Source: a bacterium
GTDB lineage: Bacteria; Patescibacteriota; Microgenomatia; UBA1400; UBA12108
NCBI GenBank assembly: GCA_021788365.1
Contig: JAJYKS010000003.1
Location: forward strand, 73,810 to 137,809
Length of the DNA stretch: 64,000 bases
Direction: 5' to 3'
The notes beneath the pieces are model-generated. The model was not told where the DNA came from and ran no database searches. It worked only from the letters and a program-made list of their open reading frames with translations. Below, piece after piece: positions 8,701-50,115 of this stretch. How positions within the stretch are numbered: the stretch's first letter is position 1; every line of letters begins with the position of its first letter. The position numbers were made by a program, and so were the translations under genes.

Positions 8701-8750
8701 TCTGTTATTGTACGTCTCACCTGTTCTGTGTGTCTATGAGCAGTTGCTGC

Positions 8751-9899
8751 TTATCGCAGATTATTTTCTATAGTATTCCAAAGTGGGGAGTTGCTTCCTT
8801 CGTAGCCTAAGGCCCAAATTGCAATGCCGCCGAGACCAGCGGTTTTAACAAGGTCGAGCTTGAGGCCAATACTGGTTGCGTTCTCGTAGTAGTACTGCTT
8901 AATTTTGCCTGCCTCGGTTGTAATAGAGTAGGGAGAAAGTGTGTCACGGTCCCACAGCTCAGCGAGCGAGCCATTTGTTATGCTTGCCTCTACGGTTGAA
9001 AGCTTGGCTATTCCTCCCATTTTTGTCGGCGCGGCATATTTATCTGTGGATGACGTTGTCCATACGTAGCCGTAAAAGGGAATACCCAGGAGTACTTTCC
9101 TCGGTTCTATATATCGCAAGGTCTCCGCCAGATTTTTGGTAACGTCTTCATTAAAGAGTGTGGGGGCACCACGAAGTGGCGCGACGGGGCCCGTTTGGTC
9201 TGAGCTTGCCTGGAAATAATCATATGCCATGAGTACGAGGTAGTCGACATGAGGTGCGAGGCCAGCTATATCCCATAGACGCGCTCTGGTTGCGGAGATG
9301 GAGTAGATGTCCACGGAAAGCGTCATTGGCTTGCTTTGACGTTTTACCTCCTGGTATAACTCCGCGATAAACATGGTAAAGTTTGCTTGTTCGCTTGGGG
9401 CTATGCCCCCAGATGGCTCAAAATCAATATTTATTCCTGAGGCTTGTAGTGCGATCGACGTGCGTATGATGTTTGTGATCGCGTTTTGTCGAGCGGCAAC
9501 ACTCCCTAATAATACCTCAATCTCGTCCGTACCATTTCCTACGAAGGTGAGTGTCAGTGGTTTTTGTATAGAGACTGTGTCGGCGAGAAGACGTTTGTAG
9601 TTTGTGTATCCCGGCTCTTCTTCTCGACGATTGAGGTATTGTACGACAGAGCCGTTTTTATCGAGCCGTAGGGAGAAATAAGCAATGTCTGTTGTTCCTG
9701 CCAGCTCTTCCGCACTTAGTAGTTTGAGATTCCAGTAGGGGAGGAAGCCCAGGATAGTGTAGTTTTTGGTGGGTAGGTTGTAGGTTGGTGTGGATACTGA
9801 AGAAAACGGTGACAGTGGAATGCTTGGAGGTAAAACGAGATACGTACCAAGGGCGCAGAGCGCAACGATGGGAATAATAAGTAACAGCTTTTTTATCAT
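8751..9899 (-). CDS. glycoside hydrolase family 18 (chitinase/YaaH-like) protein with an N-terminal TM anchor
   Basis: Start trimmed to MIKKLLLIIPIVALCAL (ATG at 9897-9899, overlapping the stop of the upstream PBP). GINIDFE (DxDxE-type) and LVLMAYDY GH18 motifs. Confidence 0.7.
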   Translation of the reverse strand: MIKKLLLIIPIVALCALGTYLVLPPSIPLSPFSSVSTPTYNLPTKNYTILGFLPYWNLKLLSAEELAGTTDIAYFSLRLDKNGSVVQYLNRREEEPGYTNYKRLLADTVSIQKPLTLTFVGNGTDEIEVLLGSVAARQNAITNIIRTSIALQASGINIDFEPSGGIAPSEQANFTMFIAELYQEVKRQSKPMTLSVDIYSISATRARLWDIAGLAPHVDYLVLMAYDYFQASSDQTGPVAPLRGAPTLFNEDVTKNLAETLRYIEPRKVLLGIPFYGYVWTTSSTDKYAAPTKMGGIAKLSTVEASITNGSLAELWDRDTLSPYSITTEAGKIKQYYYENATSIGLKLDLVKTAGLGGIAIWALGYEGSNSPLWNTIENNLR

Positions 9900-38344: not shown

Positions 38345-38420
38345 TCCCCTGTAGCTCAGTCGGTAGAGCGCCTCGCTGTTAACGAGGATGTCGCAGGTTC
38401 GAGCCCTGCCGGGGGAGCCA
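38345..38420 (+). tRNA. tRNA-Asn (anticodon GTT)
   Basis: Manual cloverleaf: acceptor TCCCCTG/CGGGGGA, D-arm GCTC/GAGC, anticodon loop CTGTTAA, T-arm GCAGG-TTCGAGC-CCTGC, encoded CCA. Confidence 0.85.
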
Positions 38421-39995
38421 AATTGGATTGGCTGGTCGCAAAGATGGGTTTTTGATCAATAGTTCCGTGTATTTTTGAGGTTCGAGCCGCTTCTTGTACT
38501 TTTCTTCCCATTTTTCGGGATTTTGTATAGCCAGAAAATGGTTTAACAGGTGTATCCGTATATTCTTATTGAAGTAGGTGAGGTTCGAACTGAGATCGAG
38601 TAGCAGCTTATGCTTTTCTTCTCTGGTTCCCGTCTTGAATTTGTGCTCTGCAGCGTAGGCTAGGTCAAGTGCATTTTCTATTCGCCTGCGATTATCGTCG
38701 AGATCCTGACTTGTGTTGGTTAGCTGCTGCTCCAGGGTATGTTTTTCACTCTCTAGCTTGCGTTTCTTCTCGTTGTATACAGCTTCGTCGATGTTATTTT
38801 CAAGACGCATATCCAAAAGGGTATTTAATTTGTTCTCTACGATTTGGAGAGCGCTTTGGCGTGAAGCCATGACGTTTTCTTGGAACAGGTGCTCGTCTTT
38901 ATGAGCGTATCTAAGCCATTTTTTGGCCCATTCGACAAACTCTTGGGGTGGGCGAATGGAAAGTAATACTTCTTTGATTTGGTCATTGAGCTCAGATTCC
39001 GTTATCGGTTTTTGATTACAGCGAGGGAACCGTCTTTTCTTCGAGCAATGATAGTAAGTGTATATGGCGGTACGATTGGTTTTTTTGTAATGCTTGGGTT
39101 TACGGCTAGCGGTAATAGAGCACCCACATTCTTCACAACGCATGAGTCCGGTTAAGTTAAACAAATGTGATCTCCTAATCGGCTTGCCGAGTTTGCCGAG
39201 CATGCGTTGAATGATGTCGAATTCGACTCTGGTAATCATTGCTTCATGTTTACCTTGAATCCAATGTCCTGATTGCGCTGGCCACTCGTATTCTCCGTAG
39301 TAGAAGGGGTTATTGAGTATATTGTAAAAAGTAGAGCCGGAGAGTTTACCTCCTTGTTGTCCGGTGAGTTTCCATTCGTTGCGTGCCATTAGCCATACGT
39401 CGCAAGCTTGTGAACCTGCGAGAATTTCGTGGAAGCATCGTTTTACGAGCGCGAACTTGAGCGGGTCATTTTTTATGGTTTTATATCCTTTGGCAAGTTC
39501 GGGTGTGTTGATGTAGCCTAATGGAGCTACGGTAGGGTACCAGCCCATTTCGGCTTTTTGTTTCATGCCTCTTACAACATCAACTCCTTTTTTATCGTTC
39601 TCATACTTGGCTTGGATCATACAGAATGCCAGCCACATTTTGTCATTGGGGTTGTTGAGGAAAGTTTGGGAGGGGGTGATAATGCGGATCAGCAGTTTTC
39701 TATCCATGAGGTCGATAATTCGAGCGGAGTCTACCGGGTTACGGGAGAGACGATCAGCGTGCCATACCATTATGGTGTCGACCTCCCCGTTTTCTATTAG
39801 CTCCATGAGCCTGTTAAACTGCTCTCGTCGCCCGGAGATTTTGGCGGATTTAGATTCGTAGAGCTCAATTCTTTCTTTGGGGAGATCAGGTGTTCTTTCG
39901 GCTAGTTTGTTCATTTCTTCCATTTGTGCCGGAATGGAAAGCATTTGCCGATCTTCTGTTTCACTGGATTTACGTGCGTAAATTGCATATTTCAT
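38379..39995 (-). CDS. large serine recombinase (resolvase/invertase catalytic domain + recombinase domain + zinc ribbon)
   Basis: 538 aa; N-terminal YARKSSETEDRQMLSIPAQ with the catalytic Ser; recombinase domain; CEECGC...CSKK zinc ribbon; C-terminal coiled coil; the last about 14 codons read into the tRNA-Asn 3' half. Confidence 0.8.
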   Translation of the reverse strand: MKYAIYARKSSETEDRQMLSIPAQMEEMNKLAERTPDLPKERIELYESKSAKISGRREQFNRLMELIENGEVDTIMVWHADRLSRNPVDSARIIDLMDRKLLIRIITPSQTFLNNPNDKMWLAFCMIQAKYENDKKGVDVVRGMKQKAEMGWYPTVAPLGYINTPELAKGYKTIKNDPLKFALVKRCFHEILAGSQACDVWLMARNEWKLTGQQGGKLSGSTFYNILNNPFYYGEYEWPAQSGHWIQGKHEAMITRVEFDIIQRMLGKLGKPIRRSHLFNLTGLMRCEECGCSITASRKPKHYKKTNRTAIYTYYHCSKKRRFPRCNQKPITESELNDQIKEVLLSIRPPQEFVEWAKKWLRYAHKDEHLFQENVMASRQSALQIVENKLNTLLDMRLENNIDEAVYNEKKRKLESEKHTLEQQLTNTSQDLDDNRRRIENALDLAYAAEHKFKTGTREEKHKLLLDLSSNLTYFNKNIRIHLLNHFLAIQNPEKWEEKYKKRLEPQKYTELLIKNPSLRPANPIWLPRQGSNLRHPR

Positions 39996-40060
39996 GTTTT
40001 CCTTTCAAGGTAAATAAAAGCATTTAATGAGTTATATAGCTACCATAAAGGGAAGTAGGA

Positions 40061-40104
40061 GTTACTTTATAGTTACTTTTCCTATAGTTACTATAGTTAC
40101 TATA
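40061..40104. repeat. four tandem copies of a TAGTTACT-type unit (iteron/arm-site-like) upstream of the integrase gene
   Basis: gttactttatagttacttttcctatagttactatagttactata; a related pair gtagttatttgtagttata occurs at 43374-43395. Confidence 0.5.
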
Positions 40105-40432
40105 TTGGTATTTCCTCCGGATTAACTGACATGAGTGGCTCGTAGGGGAGGTCTAGCCTGCGAAACTCGTCATAGATTTTTTCTTCAATAGCTTGCCACA
40201 GTTCCTTATCTTCGAAATAAACAACTTTCATCCAATATGGACCTGTGGGAATAGACGGTGGTTCTATCTGGATTTTCTCTTGAAAACGAGGATGTGTGAA
40301 TTGAGACTTCTGTATCCGTATTCCGTGTATCCTTAATCCTCCGATAAGGATGTCGGCACGTGCTATTACGCTAGTTTTTTTGGTTACCGGTCTGACCGAT
40401 ATGTCTTGCAGGTCGTAAATGTTGAGTGTCAT
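40100..40432 (-). CDS. hypothetical protein (weak SpoVG-like resemblance)
   Basis: 110 aa; pattern IxVRPV...IARADILIGGLRIHGIRI loosely recalls SpoVG; not secure. Confidence 0.35.
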   Translation of the reverse strand: MTLNIYDLQDISVRPVTKKTSVIARADILIGGLRIHGIRIQKSQFTHPRFQEKIQIEPPSIPTGPYWMKVVYFEDKELWQAIEEKIYDEFRRLDLPYEPLMSVNPEEIPI

Positions 40433-40453
40433 CTTTCATCTCCTTTCGTACTT

Positions 40454-40681
40454 TTAATCTTTTTCCATGAACGCGTGCAGTGCATGAGTAAGCTGTTCGG
40501 TTGTTTTGTACACACCCTCGTTTGTAAGACCGTGTTGGTAGGCAACACGCAGCTTAAATATGATTTCTGAGCTTTTTGCCGTCTGGATGAAATGGTAAAT
40601 GCGTTTGATTTTGCGGGATCTGATAGATTGGATCGTGCCGGTAGGATCAATGGCTTGAATGGCGATTTGAGGAGGTTTCAT
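40454..40681 (-). CDS. hypothetical small protein
   Basis: 75 aa; start ATG overlaps the stop of the upstream 49-aa ORF (ATGA). Confidence 0.35.
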   Translation of the reverse strand: MKPPQIAIQAIDPTGTIQSIRSRKIKRIYHFIQTAKSSEIIFKLRVAYQHGLTNEGVYKTTEQLTHALHAFMEKD

Positions 40682-40827
40682 TGTTTCAACTCCGATGGTT
40701 TGGTGACTAGCTCTACAAAGTTGAATAACTTGTTTGCGTATTCGGAAGCTTCCTCAAAGGACAATATAACCCCGTATAGTTTTTTGTAGATGTCCTGGTA
40801 TTCGATCACAGCTTCTCTAGGTAGCAT
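40679..40827 (-). CDS. hypothetical small protein (49 aa, not in the ORF track)
   Basis: Reverse strand ATGCTACCTAGAGAAGCTGTGATCGAATACCAG... gives MLPREAVIEYQDIYKKLYGVILSFEEASEYANKLFNFVELVTKPSELKQ; stop overlaps the downstream start; begins 1 nt after the upstream stop. Confidence 0.3.
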
Positions 40828-40828
40828 G

Positions 40829-41074
40829 TCATAATCCTTGGTGAAGCCTCGTTTTTAATTCGTTTATGGCGTCAATGACTGCTTTGGTGGGAAGTACAAG
40901 TTTGCCATTCCAATGCTGCTCTATAAGGTTGTTGGCTTGTAAAGGAGAGATGTCGAAGTGGAACAGGTATGTTTTGCTGTCTATTGGTTCCAGGTGGGTA
41001 AGTGTGGCGCCGGCTGCACGAAGACATGCGCTTAGGTAGAAATCGCGTGATTGAAAAGTTATTCCATTGTTCAT
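40829..41074 (-). CDS. hypothetical small protein (possibly DUF5659-like)
   Basis: 81 aa; DFYLSACLRAAG...YLFHF...LKTRL pattern. Confidence 0.35.
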   Translation of the reverse strand: MNNGITFQSRDFYLSACLRAAGATLTHLEPIDSKTYLFHFDISPLQANNLIEQHWNGKLVLPTKAVIDAINELKTRLHQGL

Positions 41075-41149
41075 TATGCTCTCGACTTTATGTCAAAAGC
41101 ATAGGACTAAATACCACAGTAAAAGTTTAGAAAAAGTGTTGGAAACTGT

Positions 41150-41887
41150 CTATTTTAGGAGTTTTTCGATGGGCTCGTTTGACATAACGTAGGTTAGTAG
41201 GTCTTTGTGAGTGAAGAGGCTTGAAAGATAGTCATTTAGCCTTGTTACGCGGGTGTCCATGTCTTTATATGTCATTTCTTGGAACATGATGTCTTCTGGA
41301 TCAAATTTGCTTCTAATCCTCTCCAAGAGCTTAATGTTTTTCCTTGCTTTGCCGGATTTTGAGTATGTTGTGACTAGATTGTAGATTTGGCGAATAGACA
41401 AATCCACCGAAAGTGTTTTCTTGTTGATTTGGATTTTGTTGACGGGAAGAGTATCGAGTTGATCTTTTAAAGCCTTGTTTTTTCTGATCAATTCTGCCAG
41501 TTCTGTTCGTGACATTTGTTCGTTTACCGTAATGGTCACTTTTCCGTTTCCTTTCGTACTTGAGATTGGAGGTATGCATACCCGATGTTTCACGAGCGGC
41601 AGTCCTATGAGTAGAGCAGTGATTGTTGTTGTCCAATTCCACGCGAGATTTAGTCGGCTGGTTAGTAAGATGGCGATATTGATAAGTCGCTTGTGGTCGA
41701 TATTGCGAAATGCGTCGGAATCAGTTGCTATTCCATCCACGGGTATGCCGCATGCTTTTCTGGTTTTGGATATAACTATTTGGAAAGTTGGGATTTCCAT
41801 GAGTAGAAAAAAATACTTTTTTTCGCCCGGTGTGAATTCAATCTCATTGGGATCTGTTGGTTTAGCAAACTTGATATTCATTTTCAT
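41150..41887 (-). CDS. hypothetical protein
   Basis: Trimmed to MKMNIKFAKP (ATG at 41885-41887); 245 aa; no motif recognised; could be a replication/regulatory protein of the element. Confidence 0.45.
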   Translation of the reverse strand: MKMNIKFAKPTDPNEIEFTPGEKKYFFLLMEIPTFQIVISKTRKACGIPVDGIATDSDAFRNIDHKRLINIAILLTSRLNLAWNWTTTITALLIGLPLVKHRVCIPPISSTKGNGKVTITVNEQMSRTELAELIRKNKALKDQLDTLPVNKIQINKKTLSVDLSIRQIYNLVTTYSKSGKARKNIKLLERIRSKFDPEDIMFQEMTYKDMDTRVTRLNDYLSSLFTHKDLLTYVMSNEPIEKLLK

Positions 41888-41895
41888 GTACGTAC

Positions 41896-42108
41896 ATTTT
41901 ACTCTGGTTGAAGACCCATAGGCTATGCTACAATCGTTTTGTTCGCCTAAACCTCGAGTAATCGAGGCATGGTGAGAAATACCGCTACAGAACGAGGGAG
42001 CTCCTCGTTTAGGTGCTGTAGCGGTCGCATCTCGAAAGGGGTGTGGGTGGCGCAAGCCACTGCCTAGCGGGGAGCTTTTTGTAGCTCCTAGCCTAGGGTT
42101 AGGAGATC
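41896..42108 (+). promoter_or_regulatory. extended -10 promoter (TTGAAG ... TGcTACAAT) plus an about 185-nt structured leader with three hairpins and alternative pairings, ending in an AGGAGA RBS
   Basis: Hairpins CCTCGAGTAATCGAGG, GCTACAG-aaCGAGGgagctCCTCG-tttaggtg-CTGTAGC and GGAGCTttttgtAGCTCC; CCTAAAC can alternatively pair with GTTTAGG. Confidence 0.4.
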
Positions 42109-42891
42109 ATGCTACTAGACCGTAAGAAGATAGGACATTATTTCGCAGAAGCAGTAAAGATACTGGTGGCTTCTGTCATTGTTATCTATTTGGTCTTTAC
42201 AGCCCTCCATTCCAGTGACAAAGTTGCTGATGTCCCATCACCAGCCCCAGCTAGTAATACATGTATCCGACAATCCCCATACCCATTAAAGCCGGAGTTT
42301 GACCGTGTGCTGAGCCTACTGCTGCAGCGATATCAACAAGCTAACTCTCCCCAATATGCCACTTTCTCTATAATGCGAAATTGTCTTGACGTGCAGTTTG
42401 CTGACCTTGGTAATCAAGGAGCCGAGGGAGTATTCTATTTTGATCAAAAACTGTCTAATCCTCAACGTCTATTGATTGAGGTTGATTCCAAATACTCGTC
42501 CACCGATGATCTTACGACGGCTTTTCTATTGTCACACGAGATGGCTCATGCCAGGCAATATGTCGAAAGTACAAGTAGTAATAAGCAGTGGGGCTGTGTT
42601 GATGCTGAGGTGGATGCGTTCTATTCCCAACTTCTGTTTGGTGCCATGCTTAACAAAGAGGAAAGTAGTTCAATTGTTTCGAGGCTAGAGCGAGGATCCA
42701 ACAACAGCCAACTGAAAGAATATGAGCATCTATTGGACGTCAGCTACACGGCGATCGGTGAGTGTCGAAGTGGCAATAGCGCTCAAGGCAAGGTTGATAC
42801 AGTTTGTTACAAAGACAAATTGTACAAAGCAATGCGTGCCGAAATTGTCTCAAATCCGTTTTACCAAGAAGAATGCAAAGGGGACCTGTGA
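42109..42891 (+). CDS. membrane-anchored HExxH zinc metallopeptidase-like protein
   Basis: 260 aa; N-terminal TM; HEMAH motif (LSHEMAHARQY); no further family assignment. Confidence 0.55.
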   Translation: MLLDRKKIGHYFAEAVKILVASVIVIYLVFTALHSSDKVADVPSPAPASNTCIRQSPYPLKPEFDRVLSLLLQRYQQANSPQYATFSIMRNCLDVQFADLGNQGAEGVFYFDQKLSNPQRLLIEVDSKYSSTDDLTTAFLLSHEMAHARQYVESTSSNKQWGCVDAEVDAFYSQLLFGAMLNKEESSSIVSRLERGSNNSQLKEYEHLLDVSYTAIGECRSGNSAQGKVDTVCYKDKLYKAMRAEIVSNPFYQEECKGDL

Positions 42892-42915
42892 TCTACTACA
42901 TAATCTTCATACCCA

Positions 42916-43067
42916 TGGTACTTGGGATCGCTTATTATCTTTGGTCGGCTAAATATCCGGAACTTGGAGAGAAACTCGAAGAGAGACTTGAACCAGTGGT
43001 ACAGTTCTGCGGATACTGTCTGGGGATCGGAATTATCCTTGTTCTTTTATGGGGAATGTTTTCGTAA
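42916..43067 (+). CDS. hypothetical small hydrophobic peptide
   Basis: MVLGIAYYLWSAKYPELGEKLEERLEPVVQFCGYCLGIGIILVLLWGMFS; start ambiguous (the track ORF starts earlier in an overlapping frame). Confidence 0.3.
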
Positions 43068-43450
43068 GGAGATTGGCATCAGTCTTCATATACTAGGGAT
43101 ATAGGAGGCATGGTTTAGTGCATTTTGTTGCTCACGGGGCCACCTGAGGGTGTAACGCCTCGTAAGGATTTTTTGGTGCGGACATTGTCTTATCGACAAA
43201 ACATTGCCCCAAGAGCCTTTAAGCGGCCAAACACATAAATTTGCCTTTTATGTGTGTGTTTCCTCTGAAAACCTTTAGTATCCTTAAGTTTGTCCAGAAA
43301 ACATGGAATACTTTTGAATCGTTGATCTTGGCAGAACGTATATTTTTAGTTAGCGACTTGAGTAATAGTTGTAGTTATTTGTAGTTATATTTCTGGTTAC
43401 CTTGAGCATCCTTGAGTTATTTAGTCTATGATACCCTCAATAGTTGATGG

Positions 43451-45244
43451 TTAAAGTTGATTTTTATCTCTAAGTCTCCGATATAGTTCTGCAACCCATG
43501 GCGAATAGTGTTTTGTCTGAAATACTAAATGTAGCTCATATTTTGCCCTGGTTACCCCCACATAAAACAATCTTCTCGCTTCATACATGTCTTCGGAATT
43601 ATCCGGTTCGTATTGATTCGGGAAATGGCCTTGGTTCATATTGAACAGAATCACAATATCAAATTCTCTGCCTTTTGAACTGTGAAGCGTACTTAGATTG
43701 AGTCTTCCCTCATTAGTCATGTGACCCGAAAATTGCAGTAGAGATAGGTCCGAGTTATTCATGGAGCCATCAGTCCTTTGTATCATCGTATCAATTGTTG
43801 ACCAATCATCGATTTTTGTTTTAGCTAATGCAAGCCATGGTGTAATTAACTCTTCTTTAAATTTTAATAGCCAATCATGAGTTGAGCCTGTTGAGTTTAT
43901 AGTCTTGTGTAGAAATCCCAAAAGGGTGGTTTCTATGTATCTTTGTTCTTCTCTAGAGATTGTATGTCCGTATACTAGTCTGATTGCCTCGGTGGTGAGA
44001 TGCTGGAATGATGGACTTGCGTTTTTCCATCCGCCCGTAATCCATGATGAGCATGCTTCAATGAACCGAGATAATCGATTGTTTCTTAGGATTAGTGCAT
44101 TTCTGTCTGCACGAATAACAGGAATATTCTGGGATGCTGCAATTGAGGATAGTAAGTCTCCATCTTTAGAGTCACGATAAAGTACGGCGATTTTTTCAAG
44201 CGGTACTCCATTTTCACTTAGCTTAGGTATTAACTCTTTGATTACATAATTTGCTTGTTCTGTGAGATTTCCATCAACTTTGTCAAAGGATATCAATCCT
44301 TTGCTCGTTCCTGAAGGAGCTTTGTGGTTTCGATCTTGACCAAGTGCAGAGTTGGACGCTTCAATAATGCTTGTTCCACATCTGTAATTAAAAGGAAGTT
44401 GTATAGTTTTAACTTGTGGGTAAGTGGTTAGGCTCTTTAATAGTTCAGGATTTGCGCCAGTAAACCGATAGATTGATTGATCTGGATCCCCGACCGCGAA
44501 AAGTCGAATATTCGATTTGAAGCAGAGTTGTAATACTAATTCATGTAGAGCGGTGCCAAGATCCTGATATTCGTCAATAAAGAGTACTGGGTATTTTGCA
44601 TGCATTGCCTCCCTTATCCACTCGTTTTCGATTACTAATCTAGCTGCTAACAATGGCATGTCTTCAAAATCAATTAGACCATTTTTGCGAAGATCATTTT
44701 CATACGAGTTGATAATCGCAATAATGCCCTTATCCTGATTATTCCAATTTTCGCTATTTCTATTGACTACTGTTCGCCTTATTAATTCAGCAGTTTTCCA
44801 TGTGTTGTTTTGTATTATCGGTTTTCCAGTAACGACTTGAAAAGAATTTAGCTTAGACTGTTTTGTTTGCTGAAGCGTAGCTATTTGAGGTTCTATTGGA
44901 AAATCCTTGTAAACACATCTTGCATAGGGCAATATGATCTGCGAATATGCAAAGCTATGTACTGTTCCAATAAAAATTCTATCACTTGGCTCTATTCCTA
45001 TTTTCAGTAGTTTTCCTTCTAACTCTAGTGCACACTCGTTGTTATATGTTACACAAGCAATTCCCCGCGGCTCTACAACATCGTCTAATAATGCGCGCGC
45101 AATTGCTGTTGTAAGCGTTCTTGTTTTTCCACTGCCTGGACCGGCTAAAACTACACAGTGTCCTTTTTCCTGAACTGCCTCAATTTGCTGAGGGTTGCCA
45201 TCCATTTCTTCGAGCGTTTGTTGAAAAAGACTACGACTGGACAT
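43451..45244 (-). CDS. gajB: UvrD/PcrA-like superfamily 1 helicase, Gabija GajB-like
   Basis: 597 aa; Q-motif/Walker A VVLAGPGSGKTRTL, Walker B FIDEYQD, motifs III-VI; start overlaps the upstream OLD-family gene by 14 nt. Confidence 0.7.
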   Translation of the reverse strand: MSSRSLFQQTLEEMDGNPQQIEAVQEKGHCVVLAGPGSGKTRTLTTAIARALLDDVVEPRGIACVTYNNECALELEGKLLKIGIEPSDRIFIGTVHSFAYSQIILPYARCVYKDFPIEPQIATLQQTKQSKLNSFQVVTGKPIIQNNTWKTAELIRRTVVNRNSENWNNQDKGIIAIINSYENDLRKNGLIDFEDMPLLAARLVIENEWIREAMHAKYPVLFIDEYQDLGTALHELVLQLCFKSNIRLFAVGDPDQSIYRFTGANPELLKSLTTYPQVKTIQLPFNYRCGTSIIEASNSALGQDRNHKAPSGTSKGLISFDKVDGNLTEQANYVIKELIPKLSENGVPLEKIAVLYRDSKDGDLLSSIAASQNIPVIRADRNALILRNNRLSRFIEACSSWITGGWKNASPSFQHLTTEAIRLVYGHTISREEQRYIETTLLGFLHKTINSTGSTHDWLLKFKEELITPWLALAKTKIDDWSTIDTMIQRTDGSMNNSDLSLLQFSGHMTNEGRLNLSTLHSSKGREFDIVILFNMNQGHFPNQYEPDNSEDMYEARRLFYVGVTRAKYELHLVFQTKHYSPWVAELYRRLRDKNQL

Positions 45245-47018
45245 TGTTTGAAATATACTCCAGAGCTACTTTTATGTATTCTGGCGGATTCAGGCCGATA
45301 CTTGCTTCGGAGAGTTTCCCAGCGAGCCTACCTTTTCCTATGTCAGAAATCATGGATAGTAACTGCTCTCCATTTATTGGACTCTCTCCATTTTTCCATG
45401 ATTCAATTCTTTGCTGTCTGACTGATCCAAAATTCTGTGCTTGAATGACCTCGAGAAGGGCGGTTCCTAATTCAGGAGTTTCTGCGACTTCGATTTCTAA
45501 AGTTGAGTTATTGCAAAATATACCATTTTCCATCCCTAAGCTTTTTAGTTTCTCTTCATCATTTGATAATTCTTGTTTTTCTGTTTCTGACATTTGCTCT
45601 TCATTTTTGAGTTCATTATTTAACTGGATTAACGAGAGTAGCCTATTAATACCTAGTGGTTGTTTGCCAGTAAGAGGATCCCAGTCTGTGATGATGCAAA
45701 AAGGAAGAGATAGCGATCTGGCGAGACGAACATAAGGGTCAAAGTTGACCCCGCCAACATTACATACGCTAATACCTAGGTCATCGAGATTTATGTTTAG
45801 GGTTTTGGAGAAAACAGGCATAAGAGCTTCTTCAGCGTCTCCTTCAACAAAAATAACACCTTTGGCAAACAAAATCTCTGCTCGAGTAGTATCCAAGTAT
45901 CTTTGTAAATCTTCCATCAACTCTGGCTGTAGAGCTAAACTTGCCAAGGAATGTCCTACGGTACCAAGCCCGTTTTCTTGTTTTAACACTACGATGGAGT
46001 TGAGTTGAGCAACACTCGCAATATTGGGTGAATGGGTGGTCATCAACAGACATAACGGTTCGTCTTTACTACTTTCAAAGAGCTTCTTAAAAACAGTTCG
46101 CTGAAGGTGTGGATGCAGATGTGCTTCTGGTTCCTCTATACACATTATCGTAAAATTTTGATCATTTTTTGTTCTAAGCCATTCGTATTCTGCTAACTTA
46201 AGGGTAAGGAGAACAAGATTTGCCGAGCCGAGGCTGGCATCGGATATTCCTCGTTTTCCATTGTCAATTAGCATGCGTACTGATCTGAATAATCGTTGCG
46301 GATTTGTTGGTGCAATGCCAAATTTAGCGTTTACATCGTTCATGGGGCCAGTAAGCGTCGAAATTTTGGAAGTGAGAGATGATTCCAAATCTTTAATGGA
46401 AGTGATGTTCGTTACTTGGGCAGTTGCATCTTCAACATTTTTTGCTACTTCTATAATTGTTTCTTTGGGAACTTTGCTAATGGCATCATCTAATAGTGGT
46501 CGAAGTGGAGAAGTTTGCCAGTTTCCGAGTTCTGTTTCAGCATCTCTGAGTGCATGTAAAATTTCAATGCATATTTTGTTTCTAACACTATTGGAAATAC
46601 CACCTCTGGATTCGTCACCCGCACCATAAACTTTAAATTCATAATCTGTTTCGGACTGCGCTTCCCCTGATACTTCTGGTTTTTTCCGATATACATAGCT
46701 TAATCTAGAAATTGTGTGGTCTTCAGCAAGTCTGTAGTCGGTTAGGAGGGCTAGTATTGCTTCATCACTATCAAAATCTGAAAAATCGAGATGTATTTCC
46801 ACTGTTGGGTTAGGATCGGTACATTCATCCCAAATATCCGTTTGCTTAAGTTGTCTAGCTGAGTCAGGTAGTGAAGCGTCTAAAACTAGCCTTAGCGCAA
46901 ATAGAAAATTGCTTTTACCGACTCTATTTTCGCCAACTATTACGGTATTTCCGCTTAGAGGAATGTCAAGCGATTTGAAGTTTCTAAAGTTTTTTATTTG
47001 AACTCTGGATAGTCTCAT
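45231..47018 (-). CDS. gajA: OLD-family ATPase-TOPRIM nuclease, Gabija GajA-like
   Basis: 595 aa; RecF/ABC-like N-terminus (MRLSRVQIKNFRNFKSL, Walker A GENRVGKSN, IEEPEAHLHP Walker B/H-loop) and C-terminal TOPRIM (FVEGDAEE, ITDWD). Confidence 0.75.
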   Translation of the reverse strand: MRLSRVQIKNFRNFKSLDIPLSGNTVIVGENRVGKSNFLFALRLVLDASLPDSARQLKQTDIWDECTDPNPTVEIHLDFSDFDSDEAILALLTDYRLAEDHTISRLSYVYRKKPEVSGEAQSETDYEFKVYGAGDESRGGISNSVRNKICIEILHALRDAETELGNWQTSPLRPLLDDAISKVPKETIIEVAKNVEDATAQVTNITSIKDLESSLTSKISTLTGPMNDVNAKFGIAPTNPQRLFRSVRMLIDNGKRGISDASLGSANLVLLTLKLAEYEWLRTKNDQNFTIMCIEEPEAHLHPHLQRTVFKKLFESSKDEPLCLLMTTHSPNIASVAQLNSIVVLKQENGLGTVGHSLASLALQPELMEDLQRYLDTTRAEILFAKGVIFVEGDAEEALMPVFSKTLNINLDDLGISVCNVGGVNFDPYVRLARSLSLPFCIITDWDPLTGKQPLGINRLLSLIQLNNELKNEEQMSETEKQELSNDEEKLKSLGMENGIFCNNSTLEIEVAETPELGTALLEVIQAQNFGSVRQQRIESWKNGESPINGEQLLSMISDIGKGRLAGKLSEASIGLNPPEYIKVALEYISNNVQS

Positions 47019-47078
47019 AGTTGTATTTTACTCTTCTGGAGATAGACTTACATAAATTGGTCATAATTAGGCTAAAAT

Positions 47079-47558
47079 ATGGTTATGGATTCACAGACGG
47101 TAATAAGCTATGTGCTTGGGGCTATTTCTGGCTTGGCACTGGCTGTTCTCAAAACCGTTCCAAAGATTGTCGAGGATATTTGGACTGATCATCGCGAGGC
47201 TCGAAAAGCGATAAAACTAGATAAAAACAATCTTGTTAGCCAGTTGCTATACGACCTGCCAAAAGGAAAGGCTCAAGATTTTTACTATACTACCGTTAAG
47301 AAAAGTGATGGGGAACACATCGTTGCTCGAATGTCGAAGTATGACAAGAAAATGGCACAACAGATTGACGCGTACCTTGATCTCTGGAGGCACTATGCCA
47401 CCTCAAAACGTTTAATTGACGATAACCATGAAATTGTCCTGATGGATGAGTACGATGAACCGGTTTCTAAAGGGCCGTTATACGTTGAAGGGTTGCTAGA
47501 CAGACTTTGCAAGGAGTATGGTTCGATAATTGACCTCTTGAACAAATGGAAGGTTTAA
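47079..47558 (+). CDS. hypothetical protein with an N-terminal TM helix
   Basis: 159 aa; TM VISYVLGAISGLALAVL; no family recognised. Confidence 0.45.
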   Translation: MVMDSQTVISYVLGAISGLALAVLKTVPKIVEDIWTDHREARKAIKLDKNNLVSQLLYDLPKGKAQDFYYTTVKKSDGEHIVARMSKYDKKMAQQIDAYLDLWRHYATSKRLIDDNHEIVLMDEYDEPVSKGPLYVEGLLDRLCKEYGSIIDLLNKWKV

Positions 47559-47617
47559 GGGGCCTCTGTAATTCATAGTCGTAAGGATGGGGTAGAGTAG
47601 AGGAGAACGGCGTCCGA

Positions 47618-47642
47618 AATTGACTCTAGTACGGGGAGCAAG
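47618..47642. repeat. 25-bp direct repeat, copy A (AATTGACTCTAGTACGGGGAGCAAG)
   Basis: Identical 25-mer at 48541-48565; lies 65 nt upstream of the NTase-fold gene start. Confidence 0.6.
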
Positions 47643-47707
47643 CATTTTTACCTCTGGAAGTTGAAATGACCCGCATTGGAATAGAGAACTTCTGATAACA
47701 TGTATTC

Positions 47708-48502
47708 ATGTCTGAAACAAACTTAGTTGACGAGAAGCTGATACAAAATCCTGCTAAGAGCAAATTTGACAGTGTTTTGAGAAATATACAGGAACACCTT
47801 TTTGTTACTCCAGATAGTGTTGTATATCGGAACGTTATGAAGAATTGGCTTCAATCTACCAAAAATAAAGTTGGAGTTGATGATCTGGTATTTTTTCCTA
47901 CTGGGTCAGTGGCAGTGGGAATGGTTAGTATAGAAGCTGGAAGTGATATTGATGGAGTGGTTGTATACAGTTGTACTTCGGATAAAACTGACTCGGTTAG
48001 CACAGCTCTTGTAAACGTAGATTTACCAGAAGAATTTAATCCATTTTTGGTAATGTCTCGAGTAGAAAACAGGATTGAAGGTTTTTTTGAGCGAGTTGAT
48101 GATGTTCTTATGATGAATAGACCTAGCATGACAGATGAGATAGCGCTGCTGTTTGCTCCAAGCCTATCTGAGTTGAGTGATGAGGCAGAAAAGTCACTTG
48201 TTGATGGATGGAGAAAACAGGTTATCGCTAAACTTGCTTTGTTACCGGAAGGAAAAGGTGAGTTGGTGTGGGGCTTGATGTGTGGATGGCTTGAGAAGCA
48301 GTTTGTCCACTATGAGGAGAGTGATGGGGGCGACCAAGAGAAAAGAAAAATCCGAGTAGAGTCTGTGATTGACAAAAAGATTTCTGAAAGAATCTCAGAT
48401 GATGGTGAGCGAAGGGAGAGGGCAAAGACTTTTATTGATAGTCTTAGGAGTACTTTTCACTACCCGAGTTTTGATGAAATGGTACTAGCTTATTTCAACT
48501 AG
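47708..48502 (+). CDS. nucleotidyltransferase-fold protein (Pol-beta superfamily; minimal NTase/CD-NTase-like)
   Basis: 264 aa; TGSVAVGMVSIEAGSDIDGVVV matches hG[GS]-x(9-13)-DhDh including the GS-x3-G-x7-SDID spacing; acidic residues downstream; acidic C-terminal tail. Confidence 0.5.
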   Translation: MSETNLVDEKLIQNPAKSKFDSVLRNIQEHLFVTPDSVVYRNVMKNWLQSTKNKVGVDDLVFFPTGSVAVGMVSIEAGSDIDGVVVYSCTSDKTDSVSTALVNVDLPEEFNPFLVMSRVENRIEGFFERVDDVLMMNRPSMTDEIALLFAPSLSELSDEAEKSLVDGWRKQVIAKLALLPEGKGELVWGLMCGWLEKQFVHYEESDGGDQEKRKIRVESVIDKKISERISDDGERRERAKTFIDSLRSTFHYPSFDEMVLAYFN

Positions 48503-48540
48503 CTACATCAGACTGGTTTTGATGCCACGATTGCGTTCTG

Positions 48541-48565
48541 AATTGACTCTAGTACGGGGAGCAAG
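48541..48565. repeat. 25-bp direct repeat, copy B
   Basis: Same 25-mer as 47618-47642; lies 100 nt upstream of the next gene start. Confidence 0.6.
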
Positions 48566-48664
48566 GCGTCTGAGAACTTATAATCTCAAGGCGTAATTTG
48601 GTAAAAATGACCTAGGTAGGTCAGTCTTCAGAGGTCACTCGGATAAGCCCTATAGTTTGTTTAT

Positions 48665-48943
48665 GTGATATACTGCTCGGTTATGCCAGAGACATTTAAG
48701 TGTTTTACGCTGTGTCCATATTTTGAGTGGGTGAGTGAAGATGGGCGTTCTGCATTTGTCCGATGCAAGGCACTCCCAGGTGGAACCGAATTTGAGGTGA
48801 TACCGGCAGGCGACTCTGCACCGGAGTTTTTTGAGGGTGTTAGAGAAGGGAAAGATATGAAACTCCCATATCCCTGCCAGGTGGTGGAGCCAACATTGAT
48901 TACCACAATTGCTTTATATATTTCTAATAAGAACAAAGATTGA
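48665..48943 (+). CDS. hypothetical small protein (Cys-rich N-terminus)
   Basis: 92 aa; stop overlaps the start of the HTH gene (ATGA). Confidence 0.35.
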   Translation: MIYCSVMPETFKCFTLCPYFEWVSEDGRSAFVRCKALPGGTEFEVIPAGDSAPEFFEGVREGKDMKLPYPCQVVEPTLITTIALYISNKNKD

Positions 48944-49221
48944 TAGGCAGCAATATGACCTATTCACCTGAAGATGTTGCCGCGATGTATGAGACGATGA
49001 CCGGCGAGGAAATCGCTGCGCTTACTGGACTTGCTTTGCTGAAGGTGTATGAGTTGGCGCGTGAGGGTGGAGCTGATATTCGTCCCCGTGGTCACAGACC
49101 TGTTTTAGAGAGCCCGGGACTTGATGTGCTTCAAGAAATGCTTGCCAATGCTTCACAACGTGAAGTTGCAGAGCAGCTGGGTGTTAGCAAACGGACAGTC
49201 CAGAGGTGGCTGGGTAAGTAG
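48940..49221 (+). CDS. small helix-turn-helix DNA-binding protein
   Basis: 93 aa; C-terminal SQREVAEQLGVSKRTVQRWL HTH (resolvase/sigma-70 region 4-like). Confidence 0.5.
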   Translation: MIGSNMTYSPEDVAAMYETMTGEEIAALTGLALLKVYELAREGGADIRPRGHRPVLESPGLDVLQEMLANASQREVAEQLGVSKRTVQRWLGK

Positions 49222-49334
49222 GTTGTCGAGCGTCCGAGTAAGCTCGTGAACTGAGTGCAGCGTTTGATTTTGACATAACTAGGGAAGTTAATATTAGATA
49301 TGGTTAAGTAGAAGGTATCGAGGTGTGGAAACTT

Positions 49335-49366
49335 CAGTTGACATCCTAGTCTTATAGTATAATACA
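49335..49366 (+). promoter_or_regulatory. sigma70-like promoter TTGACA-N14/16-TATAAT upstream of 49368
   Basis: ttgacatcctagtcttatagtataatac read directly; spacing is slightly short. Confidence 0.4.
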
Positions 49367-49367
49367 C

Positions 49368-49736
49368 TTGATGAGTGAACATCTGAGTCAATTTGTCGAA
49401 ATTGTACATATTGATCGAGCAAGTGTTGCGACTGGAGAAGGCCTTGTAGAGCAGAACATTAGGCGACTGATAAGTGCTGGGATAGAAGTACACTTTGTGT
49501 CTCCTGACGTAGATCTAGCAGTTCCTGTTTATACGGCGATGCCAGACAAAGATGTGAGTATAGTTTTGGGAGGAAAATATTTTAGCAATGGTCCAACAAT
49601 GCATGGACATGATTGTGTCGACAGAAGGGCAGCAGCTTGGAAAACTTTGGGATACTGCGTAATAATAAATCCGGAGATTACAATGACGGATGCAGAGGCT
49701 CAGTGGACGAGGTCGGATCAGGAATTCTCTGACTAG
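49368..49736 (+). CDS. hypothetical protein
   Basis: 122 aa; no motif. Confidence 0.4.
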   Translation: MMSEHLSQFVEIVHIDRASVATGEGLVEQNIRRLISAGIEVHFVSPDVDLAVPVYTAMPDKDVSIVLGGKYFSNGPTMHGHDCVDRRAAAWKTLGYCVIINPEITMTDAEAQWTRSDQEFSD

Positions 49737-49902
49737 CGTGAGATGGTGATCGACGACTCTTGTGAGTGGGGGATTTGGAAATGATAATGTAGTCGGAACA
49801 AGCTAACTACTTTCCGAGTAGTTTGAACGTTCTCCACGATGGGGAACACTACCTTAGGTTTTCTTAGAGTTTCTACAGAATTAGGTAGTCAGTGAATGAT
49901 AA

Positions 49903-50115
49903 GAAGAATCAACAAATTTTACAATAGAAAAGGCGAGGGCACGGTGGGTGCTCTATTATGTGGACACGCCAATGGACAAGATGCGGGTCCGCACGGCACA
50001 GCGGACGATACACCCAGGTACTGACTCGTTCGAGATTAGTGAGGAACTGTTTGAGAGCTACGTGAAATATTGGGAGCCGCCCGCGGCGGACGAGCAGTAT
50101 ACGCTCGCCGCATAA
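49903..50115 (+). pseudogene. possible 3' fragment of a truncated P-loop kinase/ATPase-like gene (no start codon)
   Basis: In-frame reading ...IEKARARWVLYYVDTPMDKMRVRTAQRTIHPGTDSFEISEELFESYVKYWEPPAADEQYTLAA* with no Met and an in-frame stop at 49900; lies at the presumed right edge of the island. Confidence 0.25.

Follow-up and report, generated by a model that had tools for sequence, protein, structure and literature searches.

Tandem accretion of mobile elements, in which decayed, integrase-less elements (cis-mobilizable elements [CIMEs]) keep their attachment (att) sites, is an established pattern (PMC5704250). The direct repeats left by elements that serine recombinases move are normally very short (PMC5704250), and in the model for large serine recombinases (LSRs) of the A118 type, attP has its outer zinc ribbon domain (ZD) motif placed 5 bp farther outward than attB does (PMC3783163). 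Here, we analyzed a tRNA-Asn island within a 64,000-nucleotide (nt) stretch of DNA (referred to as the window; contig JAJYKS010000003.1, positions 73,810 to 137,809) from a bacterium of the Patescibacteriota. Toward the right end of the island, five adjacent open reading frames (ORFs; window positions 47079 to 49736) encode a 159-amino-acid (aa) transmembrane (TM) protein, a 264-aa nucleotidyltransferase (NTase), a 92-aa protein, a 93-aa helix-turn-helix (HTH) protein, and a 122-aa protein. An earlier interpretation made from the DNA alone (the sequence-only reading) had placed them next to a Gabija defense operon and grouped them as a functional module centered on the NTase, with the TM protein as effector and the HTH protein as regulator. 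All five ORFs were present, and the Gabija neighbor was genuine by PADLOC (GajA, E = 6e-225, with AAA_15 and OLD-like_TOPRIM domains in Pfam; GajB, E = 5.2e-220, with UvrD-helicase and UvrD_C domains). The grouping itself did not hold. The five genes do not form one system but derive from several mobile DNA elements stacked next to a tRNA gene; overall, the observation was confirmed and its interpretation was partly supported.

The island resembles accretions of the CIME/ICESt1/ICESt3 type (PMC5704250) in several respects: the integrase gene is proximal to the tRNA gene, DNA at one tRNA gene is replaced from strain to strain, att-type repeats separate the segments, and short segments without recombination genes keep their ends. 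It differs in that the recombinase is a large serine recombinase and not a tyrosine integrase, the host is a bacterium of the candidate phyla radiation (CPR) type, one segment measures 923 bp and carries a single gene, and the 33-nt repeat would be an element-borne arm of the right junction and not an identical attL/attR core. The window was also located on a 580-kb contig (DAHXIW010000001.1; GCA_027372535.1); the length of this contig, DUF5652, the LOOT RNA, and a Woesebacteria relative of the NTase point to a small-genome host, probably of the Patescibacteria (CPR).

Evidence for separate elements came from a comparison of three alleles of the island. Allele A is that of the window, allele B is that of contigs L013 and L014, and allele C is that of contigs L022 to L024. 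The left flank was 96 to 99% identical to the window in L014, L022, and L024, 92% identical in L023 (over the 118 nt available), and approximately 85% identical in L013, while the right flank was at least 99% identical in all five contigs. The three alleles very probably belong to the same species. On the left, divergence from the window began at position 38425 in allele B and at position 38418 in allele C. On the right, identity between alleles A and B resumed at position 48530, which is the first base of repeat copy 2; only 18 of the 60 nt immediately upstream matched, and the following 1,364 nt (48530 to 49893) were 99.4% identical, with eight mismatches, two of them inside the repeat. Identity between alleles A and C resumed at position 48886, inside the 86/92-aa ORF, the last 18 codons of which lie in DNA common to all three alleles.

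Between these junctions, allele B carries, from tRNA-Asn to its one repeat copy, a C-terminal remnant of an LSR gene and genes for an S24/LexA-like protein, a type I cyclic oligonucleotide-based antiphage signaling system (CBASS), an HNH-WYL protein, and a 263-aa protein; the 86-aa ORF follows the repeat copy. The CBASS (L013, 6093 to 8049; L014, 2292 to 4248) consists of a cyclase (PDLC00785, 1.5e-68) and an effector with one TM segment (PDLC01057, 1.8e-21). Allele C has three other genes, no repeat, and a tRNA-Asn gene without an encoded CCA. The locus shows the marks of an integrative island: a recombinase gene at the tRNA-proximal end and a site whose content differs by replacement among close relatives. 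Because the sister allele has a CBASS where the window has an LSR element and Gabija, the tRNA-Asn site is a hotspot for the exchange of defense systems. The five genes fall into four different distributions: the NTase gene was confined to allele A, the 86-aa ORF was in alleles A and B, the HTH and 122-aa genes were in alleles A, B, and C, and the TM protein gene was distributed as described below.

The junctions carry a common short core. At the right junction, allele C reads GGTTCGAG..GAACGGGGAGCCA/ACATTG and the window reads CCCTGCCAGGTGGTGGAGCCA/ACATTG (slashes mark points of joining), the latter being a decayed tRNA-Asn 3' end; at the 48886 junction, allele C has a GGTTCGAG..ACGGGGAGCCA block. 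The score for tRNA likeness of positions 48872 to 48892 was reached by 0.6% of background windows, with the position fixed independently by the allele comparison. No match of 12 nt or longer to the tRNA gene was found at the right end of the island, where only the short core and the decayed copy were present. The core, GAGC or GGGGAGC(A/C)A, was found at the tRNA end, in both repeats, at positions 48886 to 48892, at the right end of allele C, and at both junctions of a related element in contig L015. Every boundary marked by a GAGC core coincided with an independently mapped junction of an allele or the island.

The 25-bp repeat noted earlier (AATTGACTCTAGTACGGGGAGCAAG) occurs exactly twice in the window (47618 to 47642 and 48541 to 48565), and none of 100 shuffles gave even one match to the 25-mer with three or fewer mismatches. 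Its similarity extends to 33 nt (30/33 identical) and, in the profile search, to 35 to 38 nt; beyond the repeat, the two intergenic regions are unrelated to each other. A profile search with nhmmer of the window and the collected loci found two copies in the window, one in allele B, one in L015/L016, a weak copy in L021, and two in L012 and L017 to L020; it found no diverged copies other than these boundary copies. The copy in L015/L016 follows the last gene of the element, and the two copies in L012 and L017 to L020 flank one cupin-like gene unrelated to the NTase. As an exact 20-mer, the repeat did not occur in any of 185,579 species genomes or in IMG/VR. A degenerate 19-mer match in IMG/VR was set aside as chance, lying within a phage coding region without the rest of the motif.

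The flanks of the repeat differ among its contexts, with two exceptions. Repeat copy 2 and the allele B copy share their downstream DNA, as described above, and repeat copy 1 and the L012 copy are followed by a common leader of approximately 50 nt (82 nt at 91% identity by blastn, repeat included). This leader holds a nine-codon mini-ORF before the NTase gene (MTRIGIENF, then a stop), which is homologous to the first codons of the 143-aa cupin-like ORF of L012 (287 to 718). It may be that the NTase segment took the place of a cupin gene body or that the peptide of the leader is itself conserved. Two other roles for the repeat were tested and gained no support: as a structured RNA or terminator, its single strands folded no better than shuffled sequences (z = -1.26 to +1.13), and as a sigma-70 promoter, its TTGACT had no -10 partner at a workable distance and the promoter scan listed none there.

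All copies of the repeat end in a sequence like ..ACGGGGAGCAA, resembling the tRNA-Asn 3' end, ..CCGGGGGAGCCA. The distance between a TTCGA-like box and the GAGC core is 18 nt in the repeat, 12 nt in the tRNA gene, and 17 nt at the allele C right end. In the attachment sites of the A118/LI integrases (PMC3783163), a half-site of approximately 25 bp likewise lies beside a short crossover core, and a common box is likewise separated from the core by a greater distance in the element-type arm (here, 17 to 18 nt) than in the target-type arm (here, 12 nt). The two cases differ in the size of the shift (6 nt here, 5 there), in the weak dyad symmetry of the putative attP reconstructed here, and in the target, which here is the 3' end of a tRNA gene overlapped in antisense by the recombinase ORF. 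The geometry of the TTCGA box may fit an element-type half-site, which we regard only as a lead.

The left part of the island is an LSR element, designated E1. Its recombinase ORF overlaps the tRNA-Asn gene, and the last 13 codons are the antisense of tRNA-Asn. Both the intact LSR (38379 to 38420) and the LSR remnant of allele B (L014, 222 to 263) end in ..WLPRQGSNLRHPR and a stop codon, encoded by the antisense of the 3' half of tRNA-Asn; the reading frame of the recombinase is therefore completed by the target tRNA gene. After the LSR gene come small conserved genes, the LOOT RNA, the gene for a 260-aa HExxH-like protein, the Gabija cargo, and then the five flagged genes, the first of which (159-aa TM protein) is the last gene of E1.

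A relative of E1 was found in L015, a 20.9-kb contig from the Joint Genome Institute (JGI). Its LSR shares a 90% cluster with that of E1, a LOOT RNA and a matching run of small genes are present, and its 262-aa and 157-aa proteins are 57% and 63% identical, respectively, to their window counterparts. In the slot of Gabija (7730 to 9331), L015 has a retron-type reverse transcriptase (RT) (RT_VI, 1.3e-61) with an HTH_31 protein. The 157-aa protein gene comes next, followed by an additional gene of 144 aa and a repeat copy. Beyond the repeat are genes for a Na/Ca exchanger and a cation ATPase, which are probably host genes. The element is of the same family as E1, at a site with flanking genes different from those of the window. 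The left ends of the two elements share GAGCCA followed by ATTGGATTGGC. The 260-aa protein is a backbone protein, since it is 57% conserved in the L015 element. The NTase superfamily and tRNA-linked integrative-element arrays are known classes; the analysis additionally defined this LSR element family with swappable defense cargo and a LOOT RNA. These small serine recombinase elements of CPR-type bacteria swap whole defense systems, with Gabija in the window and a retron-type RT in L015, and the sister allele of the window has a type I CBASS.

The LOOT RNA of L015 (5367 to 5485; 82 bits versus a gathering score of 46.4) and that of the window occupy the same syntenic position, just 5' of the gene for the 260/262-aa HExxH-like protein. 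This orphan RNA may be a mobile-element RNA or a 5' leader of that gene. The 260-aa protein had weak matches to Peptidase_M91 (E = 0.007) and to a phage metallopeptidase (E = 0.06).

The 159-aa protein has a single N-terminal hydrophobic stretch, as noted earlier (residues 6 to 24; Kyte-Doolittle mean, 1.8). Its role as an effector of the NTase was not supported by its distribution: it travels with the LSR element without an NTase (L015, L021). A repeat copy comes after each of its homologues (L015/L016 and L021), and in no case does an NTase gene follow; in L021, the 81% homologue precedes a degenerate repeat copy beside RadC and cupin genes. The 159-aa TM protein gene is a backbone gene of the LSR integrative element and not an NTase partner.

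These results are probably best explained by tandem accretion at the tRNA-Asn 3' end, with the 33- to 35-nt repeat representing the right ends of elements and the NTase gene standing alone between two of them. A hypervariable, defense-rich island would have been built through successive site-specific insertions at that 3' end. Segment E3, common to alleles A and B, would have been inserted first; segment E2 (leader, NTase gene, and repeat) would have been inserted second, next to the tRNA gene; and E1 (LSR element and Gabija) would have been inserted last, again next to the tRNA gene. E1 would comprise a conserved backbone and a swappable defense cargo, and E2, with the NTase gene only, would be either a decayed element or a nonautonomous mini-element of the CIME kind. 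Beyond E2 would lie E3 as a remnant, the decayed tRNA-Asn 3' end, and then the DNA common to all alleles. The repeat would combine a block resembling a recombinase half-site with a short core, (G)GGGAGC(A/C)A, copying the 3' end of the tRNA target. We infer both the use of the repeats as att sites by the LSR and the order of insertion (E3, E2, E1). On this basis, attP would be the repeat plus GAGC plus CAAATTGGATTGG.., and attB would be the tRNA-Asn 3' end plus AAGCATTT.. or plus CAACATTG... A circular E1 junction would read ..CTCTAGTACGGGGAGC/CAAATTGGATTGGCTGG.., and a site from which E1 had been excised, leaving E2, would read tRNA-Asn ..CCGGGGGAGC/AAGCATTTTTACCTCTGG... In fragmented metagenomic assemblies, the recognizable 35-nt end motif could serve to mark the limits of such elements.

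Several observations weigh against accretion. Short repeats are normal for serine recombinases, and the 33-nt repeat must therefore be taken as two related right ends and not as the attL and attR of one element. No excision product, circular junction, or empty site with E2 alone was observed. The left ends of E1, E2, E3, and the allele B and C inserts are mutually dissimilar, and the reconstructed attP has little dyad symmetry beyond a TTGCG/CGCAA pair. The tRNA-like remnant at 48872 to 48892 was not significant on a genome-wide scan. In both known cases, a unit of leader, gene, and repeat directly follows another repeat copy, for which accretion needs a coincidence, and the identity of the leader mini-ORF with the start of the L012 cupin ORF fits accretion poorly. 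Finally, no tRNA or recombinase gene was visible on the L012 and L017 contigs, which are 3.6 kb or shorter. The dissimilar left ends, the repeat-preceded units, and the leader mini-ORF keep alive a reading in which single genes move as cassettes.

In that reading, units of leader, gene, and 35-nt site are mobile, circular single-gene cassettes that insert beside an existing site in the manner of integrons but through another, possibly serine, recombinase, the NTase and cupin genes being two such cassettes. The window and L012/L017 to L020 each have exactly one gene between two copies, each unit opening with the same leader, closing with the site, and directly following another copy; across its six contexts, the site has flanks that vary combinatorially on either side, and E3 and the allele C insert, too, are short, lack an integrase, and have right ends resembling a tRNA. 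As with integron cassettes, the genes are single and promoterless looking, with a conserved site near the stop codon and variable flanks. However, the repeat lacks the imperfect inverted repeats (R''-L''/L'-R') and the GTTRRRY core of integron sites, measures 35 nt versus 57 to 141 nt, and shows neither dyad symmetry nor attC-like folding (z scores as given above), and the island has no IntI/attI/Pc platform and no tyrosine integrase. Only two cassette-like units are known in total, no dedicated integrase adjoins an array, NTase homologues elsewhere lack flanking repeats, the 20-mer search of species genomes and IMG/VR was negative, and accretion with decay can yield the same arrangement. We consider mobile cassettes unlikely. 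If they were real, an E2 circle of approximately 0.9 kb would carry a ..ACGGGGAGC/AAGCATTTTTACC.. junction, and a site lacking E2 would read 159-aa gene, one repeat, and then GGCGTCTGAG..; the locus would then represent an integron-like cassette platform of CPR bacteria that relies on an LSR, the first based on a serine recombinase, and the NTase would be one cargo gene, possibly with a defense or resistance function. Ranked lower, and in our view improbable, is the possibility that the repeat is a regulatory DNA or RNA element (an operator, part of a promoter, or a terminator) and that the junctions arose there through homologous recombination over its 33 to 35 nt. All copies are intergenic and in the same orientation as the flanking genes, 4 to 49 nt past a stop codon and 22 to 118 nt before the next start; the repeat contains TTGACT, and an HTH protein is encoded nearby in the window. 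Yet neither window copy has a workable -10 for the TTGACT, there is no stable or conserved hairpin, no HTH homologue is encoded in the DNA available around the L015, L012/L017, and L021 copies, and allele C carries the HTH gene but no repeat. Nor would a regulatory role predict that the 3' end of the repeat matches the core of the tRNA target or that a copy marks the border between the L015 element and unrelated genes. Of the two functions proposed earlier for the repeat, cassette boundaries fits, with a recombination junction exactly at the repeat in the allele comparison, and a shared operator was not supported.

The proposal that the TM protein, NTase, 92-aa protein, and HTH protein form one new NTase-based defense or toxin-antitoxin module is, in our estimation, very improbable. 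In its favor, the genes are co-oriented and adjoin Gabija in a defense-rich island, and the allele B island holds a genuine pair of cGAS/DncV-like NTase (CD-NTase) and one-TM effector, so the spot accepts such systems. Against it, the genes show four different phyletic patterns, recombination junctions separate them, and PADLOC gave nothing significant for the NTase, TM, 92-aa, or 122-aa proteins (best E, about 0.02). The gene neighborhood of the NTase is not conserved: the other four genes were present at 0/7 distinct loci with NTase homologues. The HTH protein is not specific to the NTase, since its gene and the 122-aa gene also occur in sister alleles devoid of NTase, TM protein, and Gabija genes. 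The repeat is not specific to the module either, its copies adjoining cupin, Na/Ca exchanger, and RadC genes elsewhere. The sequence-only reading had itself named a nonconserved neighborhood and a motif present at unrelated loci as outcomes that would speak against it, and both were found. No relatives of the 159-, 92-, or 122-aa proteins were found in scans of IMG/VR. Likeness to a CBASS is confined to an NTase-fold gene beside a gene for a small one-TM protein in a defense island; the 264-aa protein has no match to the SMODS or cyclase profiles (compare the score of the allele B cyclase), the TM protein is no effector homologue and is inherited independently, and there is no conserved adjacent effector. 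With the minimal NTase (MNT) of MNT-HEPN systems, the protein shares only the NTase core, having 264 aa and a helical C-terminal domain versus approximately 100 to 150 aa, and its neighbors have no HEPN match. AbiEii/DUF1814 gave no match at E ≤ 1 in Pfam, NCBIfam, or PADLOC. A false lead is thereby removed: a Gabija neighbor, a small TM protein, and an NTase motif together look like a new CBASS-like system, but the genes belong to separate pieces that are inherited independently.

The seven distinct loci with NTase homologues had unrelated surroundings. The gene lies beside the C terminus of a Xer-type integrase and a cupin gene (L003), a cupin gene (L004/L005), a gene for a HAD-like protein (L006), genes for a Mg-chelatase and an RNase H-like exonuclease (L009), and other genes (L010/L011), and in L007/L008 it is within a Woesebacteria glycosyltransferase cluster. 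No relatives of the 159-, 92-, 93-, or 122-aa proteins were found at the seven loci, and flanking repeats were looked for there and not found. NTase homologues are solo genes in unrelated neighborhoods. Cupin genes recurred, by NTase homologues (L003, 1099 to 1506; L004, 2 to 214), by the TM protein homologue of L021 (176 to 574), and inside the repeat-flanked unit of L012. This recurrence may be a coincidence, or cupin genes may be common cargo of variable regions.

Next, the 264-aa protein was characterized. The GS...SDID motif reported for it was found as TGSVAVGMVSIEAGSDIDGVV from residue 65. Direct profile searches gave no significant match in Pfam, NCBIfam, PHROGs, PADLOC, or PDB sequences. 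A word-indexed search found three other proteins only, and a profile search found 48 relatives among 1.84 billion representatives, 32 of them at E ≤ 1e-10; no relatives turned up in scans of GTDB species genomes and IMG/VR. Across 31 aligned relatives, G66, S67, G71, S79, F149, R169, W188, and P253 were invariant, and D80, D82, and P151 were at least 90% conserved. The superfamily signature hG[GS]-x(9-13)-D-x-[DE] is present as G66-S67..S79-D80-I-D82. Among the 31 relatives, 13 matched NTP_transf_2 (best, 1.1e-6) and 10 matched Polbeta in Pfam. The earlier assignment to the NTase fold was thus upheld, the GS/SDxD residues being invariant or nearly so, and no described family was matched. The family profile matched minimal NTases (E = 0.0018) and CdnC (E = 0.0037) in the PDB, while its matches to the antibiotic NTases ANT (4ebj; E = 0.031) and Lnu (3jyy; E = 0.45) were not significant.

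An AlphaFold2 (AF2) model from the 31-sequence alignment had a mean predicted local distance difference test (pLDDT) score of 94.1 and a predicted TM (pTM) score of 0.90; it replaced a run with four sequences (pLDDT, 60). In the model, the strands and helix of the signature (beta1-turn-helix and beta2) are at the expected places, and the best fold neighbors are DrrA, GlnE, and minimal NTases and not CD-NTases. Foldseek gave weak matches in the PDB, with AadA on top (E = 0.02 to 0.13; TM score, 0.23 to 0.30). As in DrrA/SidM, GlnE, and AadA/ANT, a helical domain comes after a pol-beta core containing G-x(n)-D-x-D. The protein is only 8 to 14% identical to them over 138 to 152 aligned residues, with Foldseek TM scores of 0.23 to 0.30 and E ≥ 0.02, and the invariant F149, P151, R169, W188, and P253 of its family have no described counterpart. 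These results show that the 264-aa protein has a divergent pol-beta NTase core and a helical C-terminal domain and belongs to a small, rare family, closest in plan to protein and antibiotic adenylyltransferases and not a CD-NTase.

Two results count against an active enzyme of this fold. Foldseek searches of the PDB and BFVD gave no match at E ≤ 0.001, and the beta-3 column block of the 31-relative alignment holds no conserved acidic residue that could serve as the third catalytic carboxylate. Because no third carboxylate is conserved on beta-3, NTase activity is likely but not assured; E155, in the conserved FxPSLxE motif, might substitute. The protein is probably a stand-alone accessory enzyme that moves a nucleotidyl group, most likely AMP, from a nucleoside triphosphate to a protein or small-molecule hydroxyl, a chemistry suggested by the fold neighbors and the invariant GS/DxD residues. 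A role in defense is unproven because homologues are in nondefense contexts, although the position in a hotspot is suggestive. With approximately 50 known relatives, a confident model, and no direct profile match, the family is a clean, small biochemical target.

Table 1. Features of the tRNA-Asn island and its right flank, in window coordinates
Feature	Position	Strand	Basis or remark
tRNA-Asn(GTT)	38345-38420	+	ARAGORN and Rfam; left junction of the island (attL); last bases, ..CCGGGGGAGCCA, hold the core common to the repeats
LSR of E1, 538 aa	38379-39995	-	Resolvase, Recombinase, and Zn_ribbon_recom; 90% cluster with the L015 recombinase
Element E1, ~9.2 kb, GC 0.41	38421-47639		Backbone synteny with L015; terminates in repeat copy 1
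LOOT RNA (RF03000)	41944-42061	+	80 bits versus a gathering score of 46.4
260-aa HExxH-like protein	42109-42891	+	N-terminal TM segment; HEMAH motif
Gabija operon, cargo of E1	43451-47018	-	GajB, 43451-45244; GajA, 45231-47018; PADLOC
159-aa single-pass membrane protein, LSR element backbone gene	47079-47558	+	Homologues at 63% (L015/L016) and 81% (L021)
Repeat copy 1	47607-47644	+	Putative E1 right-end attachment sequence: P-type half-site and GAGC core (47636-47639)
Left end of segment E2	47640-47695	+	Leader common with the L012 cupin cassette to 47691; mini-ORF, 47666-47695
264-aa NTase	47708-48502	+	Sole gene of the 923-bp segment E2 (47640-48562)
Repeat copy 2	48530-48566	+	Putative E2 right-end attachment sequence; GAGC core, 48559-48562; allele B identity begins exactly here
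Segment E3, 323 bp	48563-48885		Carries most of the 86/92-aa ORF; only in alleles A and B
86/92-aa ORF	48665-48943	+	92 aa from GTG; gene callers use ATG 48683 (86 aa); spans the E3/flank junction
Decayed tRNA-Asn 3' end (CCCTGCCAGGTGGTGGAGCCA)	48872-48892	+	Outermost right junction of the island; allele C identity from 48886
HTH protein, excisionase/HTH_17 type	48940-49221	+	93 aa from TTG; gene callers use ATG 48955 (88 aa); alleles A, B, and C
121/122-aa protein, no assigned function	49368-49736	+	Alleles A, B, and C

The remaining genes of the flagged group lie at the right border of the island. The ORF described as Cys rich has five Cys residues in its 92-aa form. The HTH assignment was confirmed (HTH_17, 2.7e-8; TIGR01764 "excise," 38.3 bits versus a cutoff of 28.8), while the translational coupling proposed for the 92- and 93-aa pair needs a TTG start that gene callers do not use. 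The strong promoter proposed for the 122-aa gene has perfect hexamers (TTGACA, 49338 to 49343; TATAAT, 49358 to 49363), but their 14-nt spacer fails the 16- to 18-nt scan. The TATAAT ends 7 nt ahead of ATG 49371, and the mRNA would be leaderless if this promoter were used.

The DNA from tRNA-Asn to approximately 49.9 kb is a low-GC stretch (0.40 to 0.46 versus 0.51 on both sides). Within it, positions 48886 to 49947, with the HTH and 122-aa genes common to the three alleles, have a GC content of 0.44 versus 0.51 in the surrounding genome and may be what remains of an older island and not part of the core genome. A 55-aa ORF with no family match (49948 to 50115, + strand) lies at the GC transition and is 100% kept in allele C (L023).

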